This document shows, piece after piece, positions 23,310 through 31,925 of a stretch of DNA of 64,000 bases. Source of the stretch: Candidatus Bathyarchaeota archaeon (GTDB lineage: Archaea; Thermoproteota; Bathyarchaeia; TCS64); assembly GCA_963769425.1 (NCBI GenBank), contig CAVYLP010000006.1, positions 256,001-320,000 of the forward strand, written 5' to 3'. A model generated the notes under the pieces. The model did no database searches, was not told where the DNA came from, and was given only the letters and a program-made list of their open reading frames with translations. How positions within the stretch are numbered: the first letter of the stretch is position 1; every line of letters begins with the position of its first letter. A program made the position numbers and the translations under genes.

Positions 23310-24056
23310 TTACTTCCATTTTGTTAATATCTCCTCTCTGCGGAATGTAGCCTTTGCAGCGTAAAGGAGAAACAAGTCAATTATCAAAAGAATCCCAGCA
23401 ATGATGAGCAGGTTGCCAGCATCGCCGAGATTAATTAGACCAAGTTCACCAGCGACGTATATTCCTCCGAAGGGGAGCACCAACAGAAATCCAAACTGCT
23501 GCGCGACGCGAACATCGCTCACCCTCGCAGAGATGATGACATTCCATTCGACACTCATTACAGCTGCGAGAGGCACCATCAGAAAAAGGATGATGCCGGT
23601 ATTCCAGTTGGGGAAAAAGTAGTAGCCCAAGGTGGCATATGTCGTCAGATCCATGAGAACCATGAAGAGTGCGGCTCCTCCTAAGATGGATGCTATCGGA
23701 GGTAGGAACGCCGAGATTCCCTTCCCAAGCAATATCTCCTCATCGGTCGTTGGGGTGGCCAGAAGCGGCTCTAGGCTCTTCTCGACTTTCTCACCGACGA
23801 TGCTGTATGAGGCGAGAGTTGTCGGAATCATGCCTGCGAGGATGAGGTAGAAGAAAGAAAATGCTGGTAGAAGTATCGTAAGCACCGATGCTGGGATCCC
23901 GCTTGAACCGTTTCTATGTCCGGCAAGCTCGATCACAGCCGGGAAAAGTAATGAGACAATGAGGGGTATGATGAGGATTGAGTAGATTATGTTCTTCTTC
24001 TTGAAGAATACCTTGAAGTCCTTCGAAGCGATGATCCATGATTTTGAGAGTCTCAT
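23310..24056 (-). CDS. ABC-2 type exporter permease
   Basis: SIVGEKVEKSLEPLLATP, LLGK motif and about 6 TM segments. Confidence 0.9.
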   Translation of the reverse strand: MRLSKSWIIASKDFKVFFKKKNIIYSILIIPLIVSLLFPAVIELAGHRNGSSGIPASVLTILLPAFSFFYLILAGMIPTTLASYSIVGEKVEKSLEPLLATPTTDEEILLGKGISAFLPPIASILGGAALFMVLMDLTTYATLGYYFFPNWNTGIILFLMVPLAAVMSVEWNVIISARVSDVRVAQQFGFLLVLPFGGIYVAGELGLINLGDAGNLLIIAGILLIIDLFLLYAAKATFRREEILTKWK

Positions 24057-24973
24057 TTGGTCTGCCTCACTAGTTTCAGATAGGCGTCCTCCAGAGTTGA
24101 GCCAACTACAGTGACAGTTTGAATTTGGCCACCAGCTCGAACTAGTGTATCCACGATTATGGGATTCTCTTTTTCTGGATTTGTTACGTCGATGATCAGC
24201 TTGTTGCCGTCAGCGGCGATGTTCCCAATCGACAGCCCCTTCAATGCAGCAATAATTGCATCGTTTACCTGATCCAGCTGAATTTCGGTCTTCCTACCGC
24301 TTACCGACCGCTCGAGTTCCTCAGGGGTGCCCACAGCCATTAGTTTGGTGTTCAGTATCGCAATCCTGTCGCAGATCCTCTGGGCCTCATCGAGGTTGTG
24401 GGTGTTCAGAAATATTGTTCTTTTTTCCTTCTTGAGTTCGACTATGAAGTCTCTGACTGTTTTCGAGGCCTCTGGGTCTAGGTTCGCCGTCGGCTCGTCC
24501 ATGAAAAGGACCTGCGGATCGTGCACAAGAGAACGTGCTATAGCGAGTTTCTGGCTCATTCCTTTAGAAAACGTACCTGCTGCGACATCCTTTTTCTCCC
24601 AGAGACCCAGCATCGTGAGCAAACGTCTGATGTTTTCCTTCCTTTGCCCTTCAGTGCAATCGTAGAGTTTCCCATAGAAGTCTAAGTTATCATATGCGCT
24701 TAATTCATTGTAGAGACCAACGTTGTCTGGAACGATTCCAATTAGCTTCCTGATCTTTAAGGAATCCTCCTTATTACTCACGTCGTAATCTGAGATCCTT
24801 GCCTCTCCGCCGGTCTTTGATATGAGGCAGCTTAGGATTCTCACAGTGGTCGTCTTCCCTGCACCGTTGGGCCCGAGGAAACCAAATACCTCTCCCTCTT
24901 TAACATTGAAGGTGAGTCCATCTACCGCCGTTATTTCGCCGAACTTCTTAGTGAGATTCTTTGTCTCGATCAA
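24053..24973 (-). CDS. ABC exporter ATP-binding protein
   Basis: GPNGAGKTT, FSKGM, MDEPT and THN motifs. Confidence 0.95.
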   Translation of the reverse strand: MIETKNLTKKFGEITAVDGLTFNVKEGEVFGFLGPNGAGKTTTVRILSCLISKTGGEARISDYDVSNKEDSLKIRKLIGIVPDNVGLYNELSAYDNLDFYGKLYDCTEGQRKENIRRLLTMLGLWEKKDVAAGTFSKGMSQKLAIARSLVHDPQVLFMDEPTANLDPEASKTVRDFIVELKKEKRTIFLNTHNLDEAQRICDRIAILNTKLMAVGTPEELERSVSGRKTEIQLDQVNDAIIAALKGLSIGNIAADGNKLIIDVTNPEKENPIIVDTLVRAGGQIQTVTVVGSTLEDAYLKLVRQTK

Positions 24974-25046: not shown

Positions 25047-25544
25047 TCATCTATCCCAAGGAAGTAAGTGCTTCCACTTTGTATCCTTGTAAACCAGCCA
25101 ATACCAGAGGTTAATCATAATCGGTACCATCGTCACAATAATGACCAATGAAACAAAATACCATGTCAGATCCTCTAGATGATTCATAATATGATGAAAT
25201 ACAATAATATCCGTTGCTGAAACCACTATGAAGATGATGATTACAAATCTCGCGAAGAGACCAGGCTTATGGGTTCCAGTTGCACTGATCCTTAGAGCTT
25301 CCTTTCCTTCATCAGTCAGTGTGTAAGCTCCATCCGAAGATTGGATTACTAAGCCCTGTAATTTACTTAGGTGAAACTGTAGGAGGCCGCTGCTCTCAAT
25401 ACCGAGGGCCTTCTTCATCTCAGAAAATTCTCGAGTGGAGTTGTTTAGCAGTTCAAGGATCCTGATTCTCGTGGGGTGACCTAATGCTTCGAAAAGCTCT
25501 GCCCTATCGACATTGAAGCTGTTCCCCGATCCTTCACTGCCCAT
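25047..25544 (-). CDS. ArsR-type winged-HTH regulator with two C-terminal TM helices
   Basis: FEALGHPTRIRILELL...LQFHLSKL...YTLTDEG followed by two hydrophobic segments. Confidence 0.82.
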   Translation of the reverse strand: MGSEGSGNSFNVDRAELFEALGHPTRIRILELLNNSTREFSEMKKALGIESSGLLQFHLSKLQGLVIQSSDGAYTLTDEGKEALRISATGTHKPGLFARFVIIIFIVVSATDIIVFHHIMNHLEDLTWYFVSLVIIVTMVPIMINLWYWLVYKDTKWKHLLPWDR

Positions 25545-26257: not shown

Positions 26258-26674
26258 TCAACGGGTGATTAGTCCGTCGACGGCTAGGTGGCGTCTCTGG
26301 CGAAGATAGACAACAGGAATGCTCTTCTCCCTCAGCAGCCTCCTTAGCTCGGAGTCCGTCGTCGCCACAACACTGCCGCCACTGGCGGCGAGACGGATAA
26401 GGTGCTTATCCACCTCCTCCCCAGGCTTCAGTTTCTCGTCGAGGATGGTGATCCTCTCCGCAAAAGCCAATGCGAAATCTATCTCCTTCTCCTCACCCGG
26501 CTTCACCCGGGTCTTAAGCCACCTAAGTTCATCAACGATCGCTGTTGTTGTGGCCAGTTTGAAAGAGGACTCGATGATCCGGTTCAGCTCTGCCTCGACG
26601 TCGACGCCGAACCTTATGGATACCATCAGAAAGTTTGTGTCCAAAAGGACCAGGGTCGGCTCCCTAGTGGGCAT
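26258..26674 (-). CDS. PIN-domain protein (Fcf1/Utp24-like)
   Basis: LLDTNFLM, VATTDSELR and IPVVYLRQ motifs; conserved position after eif2g. Confidence 0.88.
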   Translation of the reverse strand: MPTREPTLVLLDTNFLMVSIRFGVDVEAELNRIIESSFKLATTTAIVDELRWLKTRVKPGEEKEIDFALAFAERITILDEKLKPGEEVDKHLIRLAASGGSVVATTDSELRRLLREKSIPVVYLRQRRHLAVDGLITR

Positions 26675-27918
26675 TAGCCGCTCAGGGCTCCGGCTCCGAT
26701 GAGTCGCCAGCGCCCGTCTATCCTTCTGCTAAGCGCCACGCGGTCCGTCTCCTCGCCGCAGATGGGTATGCTGAGTTTCGCCTCGAGGTAGTCCTTCTTT
26801 ACGAGTGTCACGTCCGCCATCGTCTTGGATGTGCCGACGTTGAGTAGAAGCTTCTCACCCTTGGCGATGCTCGCCACCTTCTCCTGCTCCTTGCTGCCGA
26901 CGACACTTCCGAAGAGCTTGACCTTCATGGACAACTCGTCCCTTACCGGGGGCAACGTCCCCGGCTTACCCAACATACTCCCTACTAGTCCGTCGCTCTT
27001 GCTTAGGCTTGGGTCGAGGAGGGTGCCGACGCCAACTAGACCGCCGGGTATAGCCTCCTCCACGGTTGTGCCGCCGATGTGGAGGCTCGTGATCTCGGTG
27101 ACCAGCTCCCTCATCTTGAGCTTGTTCTTGTCCCTGGTAGGGAGGCCGGGCTTTATCTCGACCTCGTCGCCAACCTTGAAGCTTCCCTGATAGATGCTTC
27201 CACCGAGAACGCCTCCACTCAGATCGTCAATGATCGTACCGGGGTTGTTTACGTCAAAGCTCCTGACTATGTGCATGCGCCCAGGCTTGTTGGGGTCCCT
27301 CTTCGGAGTGGGGAGGTATTCCTGTATCGCTTGGAGGAGCATGTCTATGTTGATGTTGTGTTGCGCGGAGACGGGGATTATGGGTGCCTCCTCCGCGACT
27401 GTGCCTTCGACGAACTTCGCTATGTCGTTATAACTCCGTATGGCGTCGTCGCGCTTAACGAGGTCGATCTTATTCTGTACAATGATTATGTTCCTGAGCC
27501 CCAGCGTATCGATGGCGGCGAGGTGCTCCCTCGTCTGCGGCTGTGGGCACTTCTCGTTAGCGGCGATGACGAGGATAGCCCCGTCCATGACTGCTGCACC
27601 GGAGAGCATTGTTGCCATCAGTATCTCGTGGCCGGGGGCGTCCACGAAGCTGATGGCGCGCTGGAACTCCGCCTTCTTACCGCATGCCACGCACTCCGTA
27701 GAGGTGCAGAAGCACTTTGGTTCCTCGCAGTCGGGGCACTTGAATATGGCGAAGTCAGCGTATCCGAGCTTGATGGTGATACCCCTCTTCAGCTCCTCGC
27801 TGTGCTTGGAAGCCCACTGCCCAGTGAGGGCCTGAACGAGCGTCGTCTTACCATGGTCAACGTGGCCGATCGTGCCTATGTTGACCTCGGGTTGCTTAGG
27901 TAGGCTAGGTATATCCAC
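26674..27918 (-). CDS. eif2g: Translation initiation factor aIF-2 gamma
   Basis: QPEVNIGTIGHVDHGKT, RGITIKLGY, DAPGH, QNKID and RWRLIG motifs. Confidence 0.97.
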   Translation of the reverse strand: MDIPSLPKQPEVNIGTIGHVDHGKTTLVQALTGQWASKHSEELKRGITIKLGYADFAIFKCPDCEEPKCFCTSTECVACGKKAEFQRAISFVDAPGHEILMATMLSGAAVMDGAILVIAANEKCPQPQTREHLAAIDTLGLRNIIIVQNKIDLVKRDDAIRSYNDIAKFVEGTVAEEAPIIPVSAQHNINIDMLLQAIQEYLPTPKRDPNKPGRMHIVRSFDVNNPGTIIDDLSGGVLGGSIYQGSFKVGDEVEIKPGLPTRDKNKLKMRELVTEITSLHIGGTTVEEAIPGGLVGVGTLLDPSLSKSDGLVGSMLGKPGTLPPVRDELSMKVKLFGSVVGSKEQEKVASIAKGEKLLLNVGTSKTMADVTLVKKDYLEAKLSIPICGEETDRVALSRRIDGRWRLIGAGALSG

Positions 27919-28077
27919 TTCCCCCGTGCAAACTCAAACAGTGATCCGCCTCCTCTTAAATACATTTATTGAACCTCACTGAGTCCCAAGACGCCTAGCG
28001 CAAAGGAACTTGCAGAAGAGGGGCGAACGAGAATGTTACAATTTTTTATAATAGCTATGCAGATCTAAAAGGAACTC

Positions 28078-29226
28078 TTGTTAGGTTTCTGGGAACTTGC
28101 GCCGAGGTTCGCAAACGCCTTCGTCACCATAGCGCTTGCTATACTACTCCTCAACATCTACAGAAAAGGTCGAAAAGACTTTTATCTGCTCTGGAGCCTC
28201 GGCTACCTCCTCTACGGGGCAAACATTTTCACGAGGACCTTCCTCCCCGAAGGGGGGGTAGTGCCGTTCATATTGCTAACGGGCGGCTTCACCCTGATCC
28301 TTGTAGGAATCGGCAGGCTCATAAACGGGGTAAAGAGGATGCTGATTCTCTCCGCCTCGATCCCGGTCGTCATGATCATTGTTTCCGTAACGACGGGATC
28401 CGAGAGGTTTGGCTGGCTGATATCAATCATACCATACCTGCTGGTTGGGGTCGGCCTGCTGATTATAAAGAATAGGCACCCAGTCGATTTTAATCTGCTC
28501 ATCGTGGGCTGGATGATTCTACTATTCATAAACTTGGCTCTCGCCTTCAACTGGATGAATGCGGGCTACGTCGATGTTATGGCAATCTTCGCTAAGCTGG
28601 TCATATTCTACGGGATGACAACGCCCCACTTCTCGTTCCTGGTAGACGACCTCAAGAGGTTCCTAATCATGGGGATGCCGACCAACTACAGCAATGGGCT
28701 CCAGTTCGATAGCTGCGTCCTGGTCACATCTACGAGGGGACAGAAGGCAAAGGAGATCAAGTGGATCGTTGACAGGGTGAACGACAACGTAAGACGTGGC
28801 GTAAGGAGTATTCTCGTGTCGACTTACGACCTCGTATCACCCACGGATGTGAAGACCGCAGGGATGGAGGGGGATAACATTTACCTGGTGCGAATGGTTA
28901 CTGGGAATCGCAGGGCTCCGAAGACGTTCGAGCAGCACGTGATGACCATCAACGACGACATCAATCAACTCGATCTACTCTTCACGGACGTAGTCAACTA
29001 CTCTATCGACAGGAAGATCTGCTGCGAAATAATAGTGTACTCGATTTCAAACCTCATACACACGCATGGCTGGAAGAGAGTCTACTCGTTTGCAATCTCA
29101 AAGATCCCGCAGATCAAGGGGAGCAGGGTCTCCCTGCTCTGCTTCTACTATCCCGAGACCCACGAGGACCCAACTGAGGCGTCGAAGTTCGAGAGGTTAG
29201 CGGACAGGATAGTGACGATCAGATAG
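28078..29226 (+). CDS. 7TM membrane protein with a C-terminal inactive KaiC-like (DUF835-type) domain
   Basis: Seven hydrophobic segments in aa 1-180; C-terminal IIVYSISNLI...FYYPETHE...FERLADRIVTI resembles a RecA/KaiC fold lacking Walker A. Confidence 0.7.
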   Translation: MLGFWELAPRFANAFVTIALAILLLNIYRKGRKDFYLLWSLGYLLYGANIFTRTFLPEGGVVPFILLTGGFTLILVGIGRLINGVKRMLILSASIPVVMIIVSVTTGSERFGWLISIIPYLLVGVGLLIIKNRHPVDFNLLIVGWMILLFINLALAFNWMNAGYVDVMAIFAKLVIFYGMTTPHFSFLVDDLKRFLIMGMPTNYSNGLQFDSCVLVTSTRGQKAKEIKWIVDRVNDNVRRGVRSILVSTYDLVSPTDVKTAGMEGDNIYLVRMVTGNRRAPKTFEQHVMTINDDINQLDLLFTDVVNYSIDRKICCEIIVYSISNLIHTHGWKRVYSFAISKIPQIKGSRVSLLCFYYPETHEDPTEASKFERLADRIVTIR

Positions 29227-29237
29227 ACTACAACAGG

Positions 29238-30719
29238 ATGATTGAGATGTTCACCGAGTCGCTGTTGAGGGTCATGAAACCACTGCTTGAATCGAATGCA
29301 CTCGGTTTTCTGCGCGAGGCAGACATCGCGGGAAAGCAGAGGACCCTAATTGAGAGGAGAGCTAGGGAGTTCGCCTCGTGTAGGATCGGAAAAAAGCTTG
29401 GAATACACTCAGGTGTTGACTGGGGGAAGATGCCCCTAACCACCTACAGCTTCTACTACCCCTACTTCAAGAAGCCCAGTTCAGGCGATCTCTTGTACCC
29501 GCTTGAAAACTATGTTCGGGCACACACGAGCGGGACGATGGGGCGCCCGAAGAGCTTCCTCCTCCCGAAGACGGCCCTGCAGGATAATCTCCGGAAAACC
29601 GGTCTGACGTTCATGCTCCTCTGCACCCACGACGGGGAGCGGATACGCTTCGAGGTGGGGGACGTCATATACCGAAACGCCCCTGGAGGCACCTTCCTAT
29701 CCGGATTCATGCACCAAGAGGCGAACTCGATAGCCTCGAAATGGGTTAAGTCGGTACCCTCGGATGAGCTCTCCTTCAAAGACAAGGTGGAGTACTTCAT
29801 CCAGCACTACAAGGAGGTGGACGTTGCCTACATGAACGTCCCTACGCTCCTCGAGGAGGTTTACCCTCGGATCGGTGAGGAGCTGCATCTCAAGGGTTTC
29901 TACACCCAGGACAGGTCGGCGGCGATAATGAAGGAGAAGATCAGGAGGGTGACGGGGGGCTACCCGAAGGTCATCTATGGGTCGACGGAGACAATGTTCT
30001 CGGCTCTCCCCTCGATTGAGCACCCGGGCGGGTTCTTCTTCGACTGGAGGGTGATCTACCCGGAGTTCATCCCGGAGGAGAAGGCTATAGTTACAGACGC
30101 AGGGAGGATAGACGAGCCCCCAGAGATGGTCAAAATGACCGATGTCGAGGTCGGTCATCGGTACCAGCTTGTCGCGACGCCCCTGAGGAATGACCTCAAT
30201 AGGTACGTCATGCCGGACATAATGGTGTGCATTGATTCTGGAGATAGTGTACTCGGTTCCGAGGCGCCCATATTCACCTACTACGCCCGCTGCGACAAAT
30301 TAATAATGCTGCATAACTTCACCAGAATCGCTGAGGAGGAACTCGTACAGATCCTTAGGGATTCAGGAGTCCCCCTCGTTGACTTCACGGCGAGGAGGGA
30401 GATGGAGGGGACGCGGGACTACATGAAGATCTATATCGAACTGTCGAAGCCTATGGAGGAGAAAGCTGTGAAGAAACTCATAGATGAGCAGCTGGTAAGC
30501 TTCGACAAGGATTGGAGGGACTTGAAGAGTTACTTGAAGTATGACCCGTTGAAGGTCCAGATCATACCTAGGGGTTCGTTTAGTCGCTATCTCGACGCCC
30601 GCGGTGGGCTGCCGAAGGTTGAGAGAATCGAGATGCGTGACGAGAATCTCAACCTCTTACTTGAATCATCGCAGAAAAAGAGCCGTAGGAGGGTTAGACC
30701 AAGACCTTCTCCGTGTTGA
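29238..30719 (+). CDS. GH3-family acyl-acid amido synthetase-like protein
   Basis: MPLTTY, TSGTMGRPK (motif I), YGSTE (motif II), EFIP, GHRYQLVAT...RYVMPD (motif III), C-terminal PLKVQIIPRGSF...PKVERI. Confidence 0.82.
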   Translation: MIEMFTESLLRVMKPLLESNALGFLREADIAGKQRTLIERRAREFASCRIGKKLGIHSGVDWGKMPLTTYSFYYPYFKKPSSGDLLYPLENYVRAHTSGTMGRPKSFLLPKTALQDNLRKTGLTFMLLCTHDGERIRFEVGDVIYRNAPGGTFLSGFMHQEANSIASKWVKSVPSDELSFKDKVEYFIQHYKEVDVAYMNVPTLLEEVYPRIGEELHLKGFYTQDRSAAIMKEKIRRVTGGYPKVIYGSTETMFSALPSIEHPGGFFFDWRVIYPEFIPEEKAIVTDAGRIDEPPEMVKMTDVEVGHRYQLVATPLRNDLNRYVMPDIMVCIDSGDSVLGSEAPIFTYYARCDKLIMLHNFTRIAEEELVQILRDSGVPLVDFTARREMEGTRDYMKIYIELSKPMEEKAVKKLIDEQLVSFDKDWRDLKSYLKYDPLKVQIIPRGSFSRYLDARGGLPKVERIEMRDENLNLLLESSQKKSRRRVRPRPSPC

Positions 30720-31410
30720 AGACTTGGATGCCCCTCGTCGTGATTGTGTAGCTTCTAGGCTGTTCATCGAACTGCACGCCTCTCATTTTATCAATCCTAA
30801 TCGTCTTGATGAGGTTGTAGTCTCTCAGGTCTTTTGTTAGGAGGATTACGCCGTCGGCGAGGAACTGCTCCATGTAGAAGTCACCCTCCTGTGGGGCAGC
30901 CTCCGAAGTCACAATCGAGCTGCAGCCGAGTTTTCGTAGCGACTCGAAGAGTTCACCGATGACGTAGCGCTTCCGCCCGGATCTCGGTTCGTGGATGACG
31001 AGGCTAGTAAGAGGGTCGATGAAGACCCACTTTGCCTTCAGCGAATTGGCGGCATCGATTACGGTCTTGATTGTGAATAGCTCGGTGTCGCCCGTTTCAC
31101 GGTCCCGGGCGTTCACCATGTTTGCTCCCGGGATCATGAAGAGGTCGAGGGTCTTCAGCAGCCCCTTCTTCTCCCACTCGTCGAGGTTCCAGCCGAAGTT
31201 CAGCATGTTCTCCTTGATGTTGGTTAGGGGCTCCTCGAGGGTCGCGAATACACATGGTTCCCCGCGGCTGAGGGCCTGCATCATGCATTGGATTGTGAGG
31301 ATGGTCTTGCCTGCCCCAGGGCCACCGCATGCGAGGACCACCCTACCTTCCTGTAGGCCCCCACCGAGCATCTCGTCGAAGCCACTAATGCCGGTCGCTA
31401 GGAGTTTCAT
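30694..31410 (-). CDS. Single-domain KaiC/RAD55-family ATPase
   Basis: TGISGFDEMLGGG, Walker A GPGAGKT, LEE, Walker B FIDP, ADGVI and KMRG motifs. Confidence 0.92.
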   Translation of the reverse strand: MKLLATGISGFDEMLGGGLQEGRVVLACGGPGAGKTILTIQCMMQALSRGEPCVFATLEEPLTNIKENMLNFGWNLDEWEKKGLLKTLDLFMIPGANMVNARDRETGDTELFTIKTVIDAANSLKAKWVFIDPLTSLVIHEPRSGRKRYVIGELFESLRKLGCSSIVTSEAAPQEGDFYMEQFLADGVILLTKDLRDYNLIKTIRIDKMRGVQFDEQPRSYTITTRGIQVFNTEKVLV

Positions 31411-31511: not shown

Positions 31512-31925
31512 TTACTCTTTTTTCTCTTCCACGGGTTTCTCGGCGGCGGTCTCGGTTGCCTTCTCCGTCTTCTTCTTGCCCTTGGGCTGGCCCGCTATTG
31601 AGAGGTTGATGAATTTGGAGTCCAGGCTTATTGTGTTGCCGCGGATTACCTTCCTCCTCCTCTCCCCCTCAGCCTTTGGATGGAAGCCGACGCCGCCACT
31701 CAGAATGATGTGAGACTTCGCCGTGCCGTGTATGTCGGGGCGCATAGGTATGCCGTCCTTGTCGGTTCCCCCGGTGATCTTGAGCTTGTATCCTGCCATG
31801 TTGGCGACGGAGCCGTCGACTACCTCGCCTATCTTCTTGCCGATGAGCGGTGACATCCTGGCGTCCTCTAACTCGACCTTCTGGCTCTTCCCTGTCGAAG
31901 GGTCGGACACGATCAGCAGTGGCAT
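31512..31925 (-). CDS. rps6e: 30S ribosomal protein S6e
   Basis: KITGGTDKDGIPMR and GERRRKVIRG motifs. Confidence 0.96.
   Translation of the reverse strand: MPLLIVSDPSTGKSQKVELEDARMSPLIGKKIGEVVDGSVANMAGYKLKITGGTDKDGIPMRPDIHGTAKSHIILSGGVGFHPKAEGERRRKVIRGNTISLDSKFINLSIAGQPKGKKKTEKATETAAEKPVEEKKE

Follow-up and report, generated by a model that had tools for sequence, protein, structure and literature searches.

A candidate accessory signalling module of Bathyarchaeia that pairs a GH3-type ligase with a seven-helix membrane protein ending in an inactivated KaiC fold

The window analysed here is a stretch of 64,000 nucleotides from a Candidatus Bathyarchaeota archaeon (positions 256001-320000 of contig C6, CAVYLP010000006.1, in an assembly of 6 contigs and 2.55 Mb). 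Near its middle lie three genes, which encode a seven-transmembrane (7TM) protein that we call TM7, a GH3-like ligase, and a KaiC-family ATPase (Table 1). A first-pass annotation made from the sequence had described these three open reading frames (ORFs) with an 11-bp gap and a 26-bp overlap, and the coordinates match exactly: TM7 and the ligase are separated by 11 bp (29227-29237), and the 3' ends of the ligase and KaiC genes overlap by 26 bp (30694-30719). The homologues of TM7 start at the same residue as its TTG codon, and the ligase and TM7 are probably cotranscribed. The A/T-rich box upstream of TM7 reads as a putative archaeal promoter that would leave a short or absent leader, and the KaiC gene appears to have a promoter of its own, with a TATA-like box and a GGAGG upstream. 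A search of sequencing runs listed no RNA run containing this sequence, and the best DNA runs shared at most 0.25 of the sampled words, which bears neither way on expression.

Table 1. Coordinates of the three genes, their domains, and flanking features in the window
Feature	Position	Strand	Remarks
eIF2-gamma (translation initiation factor 2 gamma), flank	26674-27918	-	Pfam GTP_EFTU and eIF2_C
TATA-like box, A/T-rich, about 27-36 nt before the TM7 start	28042-28051	+	Putative, by sequence reading
TM7 gene	28078-29226	+	382 aa, TTG start; ORF confirmed in translation
7TM domain, residues 1-188	28078-28641	+	Seven helices in the AlphaFold model
Inactivated KaiC/RecA-fold domain without P-loop, residues 205-382	28690-29226	+	Fold searches
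Ligase gene (GH3-like)	29238-30719	+	493 aa
Unconserved basic C-terminal tail of the ligase, residues 479-493, overlapping the KaiC 3' end	30672-30719	+	pLDDT <50 at 481-491
KaiC gene	30694-31410	-	238 aa
Ribosomal protein S6e, flank	31512-31925	-	Pfam Ribosomal_S6e, 2.2e-36

The ligase resembles plant GH3 enzymes most closely in sequence. Among the GH3 models of Pfam (PF03321, PF23571, and PF23572), GH3_M (30.9 bits, 2.9e-7) and GH3_C (27.9 bits, 4.1e-6) both exceed the cut-off of 23.6, and the GH3 N-domain stays under it at 17.6 bits; NCBIfam gives no match, and no AMP-binding model of Pfam is hit. The three GH3 motifs named in the first-pass annotation, TSGTMGRPK (97-105), YGSTE (247-251), and RYVMPD (322-327), are present in the translation, and their core is strongly conserved: T97, S98, G99, P104, T250, E251, R322, and D327 are invariant in 37 homologues, and K105, G248, and Y323 are conserved in at least 90%. 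The profile of these 37 homologues matched only plant GH3 chains among the PDB sequences (10 chains, best 1.5e-7), and public records call the homologues “GH3 auxin-responsive promoter family protein”; identity to the plant enzymes is 14-18%. The AlphaFold model of the ligase has a predicted local distance difference test score (pLDDT) of 87.4. Its closest folds are BT_0428 (4r1l; Z 24.8, 398 residues aligned), HCL (6hdw; 24.6), and PaaK (6siw; 24.1), followed by JAR1 (23.0), ClxA (22.6), and GH3.15 (22.6), with the remaining ANL enzymes at 17.2 or less; a PaaK-type match in Foldseek (2.8e-20) falls in the same PaaK/GH3 branch as the Z-score search. The conserved nucleotide motifs, together with the Pfam, profile, and fold results, thus mark the ligase as an active-looking adenylating enzyme, by its sequence a member of the GH3/PaaK clade that stands nearest to GH3, and its product may be an acyl-amino acid amide. 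Most homologues align only up to about residue 475-478, short of the C-terminal tail listed in Table 1. A predicted complex of the ligase with the TM7 tail (residues 200-382) scored 0.00 against a mark of 0.32 in a run without controls, which is evidence neither for nor against contact.

In its AlphaFold model (pLDDT 81), TM7 has three parts, with a juxtamembrane helix between the 7TM domain and the inactivated KaiC-fold domain; model and fold searches agree with each other and with the earlier description of a 7TM protein carrying a KaiC-like domain devoid of Walker A. No Pfam family is matched, even at an E value of 10, and those of its 92 homologues that bear names are from Bathyarchaeota. 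The membrane helices of the model lie within residues 2-180 and are followed by a conserved amphipathic helix (183-198), and the positive loop after helix 1 predicts a topology with the N terminus outside and the C terminus inside. Ten residues of the 7TM domain are invariant (N13, T17, F35, W39, G42, G144, W145, K173, G179, and F185), among them K173 in helix 7, which is predicted to lie within the membrane. In the VIA structure search the domain was matched to GPCR-like (G-protein-coupled receptor-like) folds, with 8oyx (Z 15.2, root mean square deviation 3.3, 185 residues aligned) ahead of GABA-B (9jqx; Z 13.8), Z values of 13-15 being close to the noise level for helical bundles. A PAQR/ceramidase or rhodopsin identity was rejected, as these folds reach Z values of 11-12.3, the noise level for helical bundles, and no membrane histidine is invariant. 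SWEET-type transporter folds are absent among the 50 VIA matches listed, which does not exclude such folds. An identity with HisKA_7TM (PF16927) was likewise rejected, with no Pfam match and an hhalign probability of 0.5% against the alignment of the kinase-linked sensors described below; an atlas similarity of 0.77 to HisKA_7TM serves as a lead only.

The tail of TM7 matches KaiC- and RecA-type proteins in both fold searches. Foldseek found sso2452 (2w0m; 4.8e-4), KaiC (7s65; 6.3e-4), and FlaH (4yds; 7.3e-4), with overall E values of 5e-4 to 2e-3, and VIA found RecA (3cmu; Z 13.7), FlaH (4yds; 13.5), PH0250 (13.3), PH0284 (2dr3; 12.5), SSO2452 (2w0m; 12.2), and KaiC (9ofh; 11.7). At the position where a P-loop (GxxxxGK[ST]) is expected, a four-residue unconserved loop links strand 213-218 to helix 223-239, and the Walker B strand ends without an acidic residue; the tail also has conserved His and Asp residues. 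Because the P-loop is replaced by a short unconserved loop within a KaiC/RecA fold, the description as an inactive KaiC-fold tail stands, and, judged from the model, the tail is an inactivated KaiC-fold (iKaiC, in the broad sense) domain. Its earlier label “DUF835-type”, however, has to be given up in the strict sense: PF05763 is matched neither by the window protein at E values up to 10, nor by any of 37 family members or any protein of its own genome at E values up to 1. DUF7504 is matched by 10 of the 37 family members, all below threshold (best 19.1 bits, cut-off 27), and DUF5985 by 13 of 37, again all below the cut-off. The nearest named atlas clusters are archaeal KaiC-like proteins, DUF7504, DUF7090, and DUF835 (0.84-0.89), to be taken as a lead only.

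The third gene encodes an intact single-domain KaiC-family ATPase, as read from its sequence and as claimed at first pass. The protein matches PF06745 over residues 5-234 (182.2 bits, 1.3e-53) and aligns over its full length to the CI domain of KaiC, with a Walker A motif (GGPGAGKT), the TLEE glutamates, and a Walker B motif (VFIDPLTS). It is the sole strong KaiC match in the genome, four others reaching 31 bits or less. It is not the cyanobacterial clock KaiC, since it is a single domain of 238 residues without the CI-CII duplication, and its scores on the NCBIfam KaiC equivalogs (137 against a cut-off of 408, and 90.6 against 546) are far too low. A defence-system reading was rejected as well: KaiC scores 24.9 bits to the PADLOC model mad8, no stretch passes alone, and neither TM7 nor the ligase matches a PADLOC defence model.

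A GTDB-wide scan yielded 52 ligase loci, nearly all labelled Bathyarchaeia, in which the association of ligase and TM7 is close to complete. TM7 adjoins the ligase in 49 of the 52 loci, and the other three end at contig ends. Four arrangements of TM7 relative to the ligase occur: downstream convergent (35), upstream codirectional as in the window (12), downstream codirectional (4), and upstream divergent (1). In every case the ligase gene occupies the middle and points the same way as either TM7 or KaiC, 7-35 bp from it. Of 61 relatives, 14 contain the ligase, and these are the very 14 that contain TM7, one of them (G006) with remnants only; among 401 genomes of the class, TM7 is present in 48 and this type of ligase in 44, and all 44 ligase genomes also have TM7. 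The first-pass annotation had staked its proposal on a linkage of GH3 homologues to KaiC or pseudo-KaiC genes, and such linkage is what the loci display, with TM7 in 49 and KaiC in 27 of 52.

The history of the two genes is also shared. Nineteen assemblies contain two ligase loci, and in the 11 of them with both pairs at full length the divergence of paralogues is 45-55% for the ligase and 58-70% for the 7TM part. FastTree trees of ligase and TM7 have 27 of 41 splits in common (200 label permutations gave 0.18 on average and at most 2), nearest neighbours are concordant in 32 of 44 rows, and pairwise distances correlate with r=0.875 over 44 pairs. In the 22 loci with all three genes, r is 0.96 for GH3-TM7, 0.68 for GH3-KaiC, and 0.69 for TM7-KaiC; correlations by domain (GH3 with the N- and C-terminal parts of TM7, 0.865 and 0.802; KaiC with the same parts, 0.649 and 0.704) do not discriminate. 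Linkage alone can yield congruence, and the genomes are related to one another; what the figures demonstrate is inheritance of ligase and TM7 as a unit, not their coadaptation. In G242, two loci have a split form in which a dead-KaiC gene (171-175 aa), the ligase, and a 7TM gene (201-202 aa) follow one another with overlaps of 4-14 nt; that the separate receptor halves still lie beside the ligase argues for a three-part working unit. No fused forms were found among proteins of 670-2000 aa, which is weak evidence.

When 537 ORFs from the loci were clustered, only ligase, TM7, and KaiC recurred broadly. The other recurrent neighbours, namely an M20 peptidase, MFS transporters, metallo-beta-lactamase-fold proteins, a 4Fe-4S protein, and a ProRS-like protein, are confined to a single synteny block and are therefore not counted as module parts. 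The Peptidase_M20 amidohydrolase (cluster c8; L066:1338-2765, minus strand, and 7 other loci) is found at a distance of two to three genes from KaiC in this block. Plant hydrolases of indole-3-acetic acid (IAA)-amino acid conjugates belong to the Peptidase_M20 family; the archaeal protein could reverse a GH3 conjugation, and equally it may reflect lineage synteny. Three module contigs (L064, L074, and L088) come from bins labelled Patescibacteria, Krumholzibacteriaceae, and Desulfaltia and are probably misbinned archaeal contigs; L064 also contains aIF5B and S6e.

KaiC is a frequent partner of the pair, not an obligatory neighbour, and on this point the unit proposed at first pass has to be qualified. 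It is adjacent in 27 of 52 ligase loci; at least 14 others do not have it although 1 kb or more of sequence is available to either side, and 11 are undecidable. Close KaiC orthologues (at least 44% identity) occur in 10 of 14 relatives with the pair versus 3 of 47 without it, and pair-bearing genomes without a close orthologue still hold other KaiC-family genes. In the window, the module lies between eIF2-gamma and S6e, after which comes aIF5B. It had been described as interrupting a usually contiguous gene order; this holds for the closest relatives, with no gene between eIF2-gamma and S6e in 8 of the 30 S6e loci that were examined, all from the genus of the window. Within this genus the site is empty in these 8 loci, is occupied by KaiC alone or with remnants in some, and contains the full module in the rest. 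KaiC stands alone at the site in G010 and G004. In G002 (L023, G002:C34, 460-664), only ligase residues 418-485 are left beside KaiC, and an intact pair is found elsewhere (L005); in G006 (L027, G006:C180, 101-556), TM7 residues 4-45 are fused into ligase residues 367-475, and an intact KaiC is adjacent.

A second family of ligases and sensors bears on the role of the membrane partner. A search at class level over the 401 genomes gave 13 more genomes with weak ligase matches (54-72 bits), and all 13 loci were fetched. The complete ones among these longer ligases measure 535-592 aa, and TM7 is absent from all 13 genomes. In all 13 loci the ligase is directly beside a membrane protein with a common N-terminal domain of about 220 residues, for which one member scores 29.5 bits against HisKA_7TM (cut-off 28.6) and another 17.4. 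The C terminus of this protein is HisKA plus HATPase_c in 9 of 13 loci and dead-KaiC-like in 3 (L117, L115, and L120); the remaining one is cut by a contig end. The L117 tail scores 22.2 bits to DUF835 and 23.1 to DUF7504, both below threshold, the L115 tail is 34% identical to that of L117 (E 3e-34), and the L120 tail scores 18.4 bits to DUF7090. A KaiC gene lies immediately upstream of the ligase in all three dead-KaiC loci but in none of the nine kinase loci; in L117, an HTH_24-V4R regulator precedes it. In five kinase loci, a conserved receiver-domain protein and two small proteins are found beside the ligase.

In the second family, one and the same sensor domain carries either a histidine kinase or a dead-KaiC tail, and such an interchange marks the membrane partner as a signalling receptor. 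KaiC occurs only with the dead-KaiC output, which ties dead-KaiC tails to KaiC ATPases, and the GH3 ligase accompanies the sensor whatever the output, which places the ligase on the input side. The sensor reading of the 7TM partner, as first proposed for the window, is thereby strengthened. However, the kinase argument works by analogy and not by homology, because the membrane domains of TM7 and of the kinase-linked sensors are not detectably related; hhalign of TM7 against the L117 partner gave a weak tail alignment only (probability 12%, E 0.0024). The small conserved proteins of the kinase loci (about 130 and 101 aa, no Pfam match; L123:7494-8191, minus strand, with equivalents in L116, L119, L122, and L125) lie between the long-type ligase and the stand-alone receiver protein, and the two may be further parts of that module.

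We think it rather likely that the module serves in signalling of some kind. The best explanation of the whole, to which we give about an even chance, is an accessory signal-transduction module of Bathyarchaeia. TM7 would be a membrane receptor whose cytoplasmic output is the dead KaiC-fold domain, and its 7TM domain would read a small, probably lipophilic molecule derived from a carboxylic acid. The GH3-clade ligase would be the dedicated partner of the receptor, adenylating a carboxylic acid and joining it to an amine (or thiol); most likely it would make, or inactivate by conjugation, the molecule sensed by its cognate 7TM domain. An action of the ligase on the ligand of the receptor is a tentative step, which we rate somewhat below even. 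The dead-KaiC tail would hand its state to a ring of the active KaiC ATPase as the transducer, conceivably within KaiC/pseudo-KaiC oligomers, with the ligase product as the ligand at the start of the chain, and the ligase-receptor pair would work in the manner of an autoinducer synthase and its membrane sensor. In a bolder version, which we regard as doubtful though worth stating, the GH3-type ligases of Bathyarchaeia would be signal synthases, each with a distinct acyl-amide product (N-acyl amino acid-like) that is read by its own cognate 7TM receptor and relayed through KaiC or a histidine kinase; many genomes would then possess at least two orthogonal channels for cell-cell or autocrine communication, with a chemistry like that of plant hormone conjugation.

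Several observations weigh against the signalling proposal as set out here. The 7TM domain, searched alone over 1.84 billion representatives, was found in only 50 clusters, all of proteins of 404 aa or less, so that it is known with no output besides its own tail and is not reused with others. As noted above, hhalign does not relate it to the sensors of the kinase loci (probability 0.5%). For the ligase, the fold search ranks the CoA ligases BT_0428, HCL, and PaaK level with JAR1 and GH3.15 and does not separate amido synthetase from CoA ligase. The pairing has exceptions: TM7 occurs without this type of ligase in 4 of 48 genomes (G069, G089, G373, and G195, the last a contig-edge fragment), and in G064 the ligase and the TM7 copies lie apart. 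Congruent trees are expected from physical linkage alone, and the genomes are metagenome bins, mutually related, whose counts are not independent. As for the transducer, KaiC is missing from the loci counted above, and its orthologues remain by themselves where the pair is decayed or not found (G010, G004, G002, and G006). The module in the window includes no DNA-binding or other output protein, only GH3, TM7, and KaiC recurring broadly. Finally, the physical contacts, the acyl substrate and its acceptor, the direction in which information passes, and the target further downstream are all inferred.

Two of the loci concerned have neighbours of their own. In L109 (G064:C37, 166-2847), a 405-aa KaiC/GvpD-like protein (PF06745, 4.3e-31, plus GvpD_bR2) immediately precedes an A2-type ligase, and both G064 TM7 genes lie on other contigs. 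In L106 (G069:C32, 1049-3487), an orphan TM7 gene, without a ligase in the vicinity, follows genes for a TackOD1 output-domain protein and a family-2 glycosyltransferase.

The same set of genes can be read in other ways. The ligase might be the output itself, an enzyme on the cytoplasmic face whose conjugation of a cytoplasmic acid is turned on or off by ligand binding to the receptor, with KaiC as an ATP-dependent switch. The overlapping and probably translationally coupled genes of the split form suggest a stoichiometric complex of this sort, and it would suit the fixed middle position and close codirectional spacing of the ligase as well as the lack of another output protein in the window module. 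We nevertheless regard a receptor-controlled enzyme as unlikely, because a similar ligase goes with histidine-kinase sensors that have their own receiver protein, which ties the ligase to the shared sensor part and not to one output chemistry. Another reading is a vectorial chemistry, in which the 7TM protein would take part in uptake, export, or modification of the envelope, as a conduit or as an acyl-transferase, the ligase would activate the cargo, and KaiC might energise the process via the dead-KaiC tail. Acid uptake coupled to acyl activation and Dlt/Alm-type systems are known analogies; an adenylating enzyme strictly paired with a polytopic membrane protein, CoA-ligase folds among the top matches of the ligase, and FlaH, a KaiC-fold protein that docks ATPases to membrane machines, among the best matches of the tail would all fit, as would the MFS transporter (11 of 52 loci) and M20 amidohydrolase (8 of 52) found nearby in one lineage. 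Yet in 9 of 13 loci of the second subfamily the partner is a genuine sensor histidine kinase, catabolic or envelope genes do not recur among the 537 ORFs, and the best fold matches of the 7TM domain are receptor-like bundles, though at noise-level Z values; a role in transport or envelope chemistry appears quite improbable to us.

The ligase might instead modify its protein partners, so that the receptor or KaiC would carry an acyl group or AMP, for instance on an invariant lysine, by which a signalling state would be created or reset. Plant GH3 enzymes join acyl groups to amines, an established amide formation, and K173 in helix 7, the conserved His and Asp residues of the tail, the strict pairing, and the tight gene overlap in the split form could all be accommodated. 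However, we know of no precedent for a GH3 enzyme acting on a protein, K173 is predicted to lie within the membrane, and such modification seems very improbable. Least credible of all, to the point of being negligible, is an accessory island of neighbours without common function inherited together by chance. The module is indeed patchy (14 of 61 relatives) and decays in places, but adjacency has outlasted ancient duplications and the fission of a gene, is kept at many positions in the genomes and in four orientations, and recurs independently in the second ligase-sensor family in 13 of 13 loci.

The surroundings of the module in the window have features of their own. A PIN_9-domain protein (26258-26674, minus strand) lies between eIF2-gamma and L15e, and the order in which PIN comes after eIF2-gamma recurs in several relatives. 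A DUF7347 winged-helix protein with hydrophobic C-terminal helices (25047-25544, minus strand) adjoins an ABC transporter ATPase/permease pair (23310-24973, minus strand). The G+C content drops to 0.46 at 24-26 kb, compared with 0.55-0.62 over most of the window.

Signalling in archaea is poorly understood, and to our knowledge hardly any inputs to the proposed KaiC hub have been identified. The module offers a testable receptor, an enzyme with an assayable product, and a transducer, all three small and expressible, and its parallel kinase-type and KaiC-type versions amount to a natural experiment on how a signal passes from dead KaiC to KaiC. If the ligase product is indeed the ligand, the module would represent a new class of archaeal chemical communication in a highly abundant sediment lineage and, as far as we know, the first role assigned to prokaryotic GH3 enzymes. 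In the literature searched, no account came up of an archaeal GH3-type ligase with links to KaiC, to dead-KaiC domains, or to 7TM sensors; the 2017 KaiC-hub paper with its supplements and the supplements of PMC5847659 were outside this search and may list the architecture. Going by titles and abstract openings of the papers listed, “GH3” in papers on Bathyarchaeota appears to stand for glycoside hydrolase family 3.

KaiC-like ATPases with iKaiC partners were reportedly proposed as archaeal signalling hubs by Makarova, Galperin, and Koonin in 2017. Such hubs, with inactivated KaiC partners such as DUF835 and MEDS, also figure in a later account (Galperin et al. 2018, PMC5847659). The window module resembles them in that an active single-domain KaiC lies beside a P-loop-less KaiC-fold domain fused to a sensor-like membrane domain, and in the second subfamily a dead-KaiC tail replaces the histidine kinase, with KaiC present only then. 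It differs in that its tail reaches neither the DUF835 nor the DUF7504 cut-off of Pfam, its strictly conserved partner is a GH3-type ligase, and no transcription factor belongs to it. FlaH/ArlH and PH0284/SSO2452 are the best structural matches of the TM7 tail; these proteins keep the nucleotide site, whereas the TM7 tail has lost it and is fused to a 7TM domain. The 7TM sensor of the HisKA_7TM kinases (PF16927) is carried by the second-subfamily partner but is not matched by the window TM7.

The plant GH3 enzymes (JAR1, GH3.12/PBS3, GH3.5, GH3.6, and GH3.15) are the sole PDB family matched by the ligase profile, and they share with the ligase the GH3_M and GH3_C matches over the cut-off, the three motifs, and the fold. 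The archaeal ligase is about 100 residues shorter, however, with an N-domain under the cut-off and the low identity given above, and it is partnered with a membrane receptor; we know of no plant GH3 enzyme with such a partner. PaaK-type CoA ligases (PaaK1/2, BT_0428, and 2-hydroxyisobutyryl-CoA ligase) match the fold equally well or better and are similar in size, but the window ligase lacks a PDB profile match to them, an AMP-binding Pfam match, and catabolic neighbours. In the pairs of autoinducer synthase and sensor kinase CqsA/CqsS and LuxM/LuxN, an enzyme making a small lipophilic signal is encoded beside a multi-helix membrane sensor, and the pairs are matched and diversify together. The enzyme family, the sensor fold, and the transducer of the archaeal module are different, with KaiC instead of, or as an alternative to, a kinase; the ligase gene beside a polytopic membrane partner recalls these pairs and provides the working analogy for the module.

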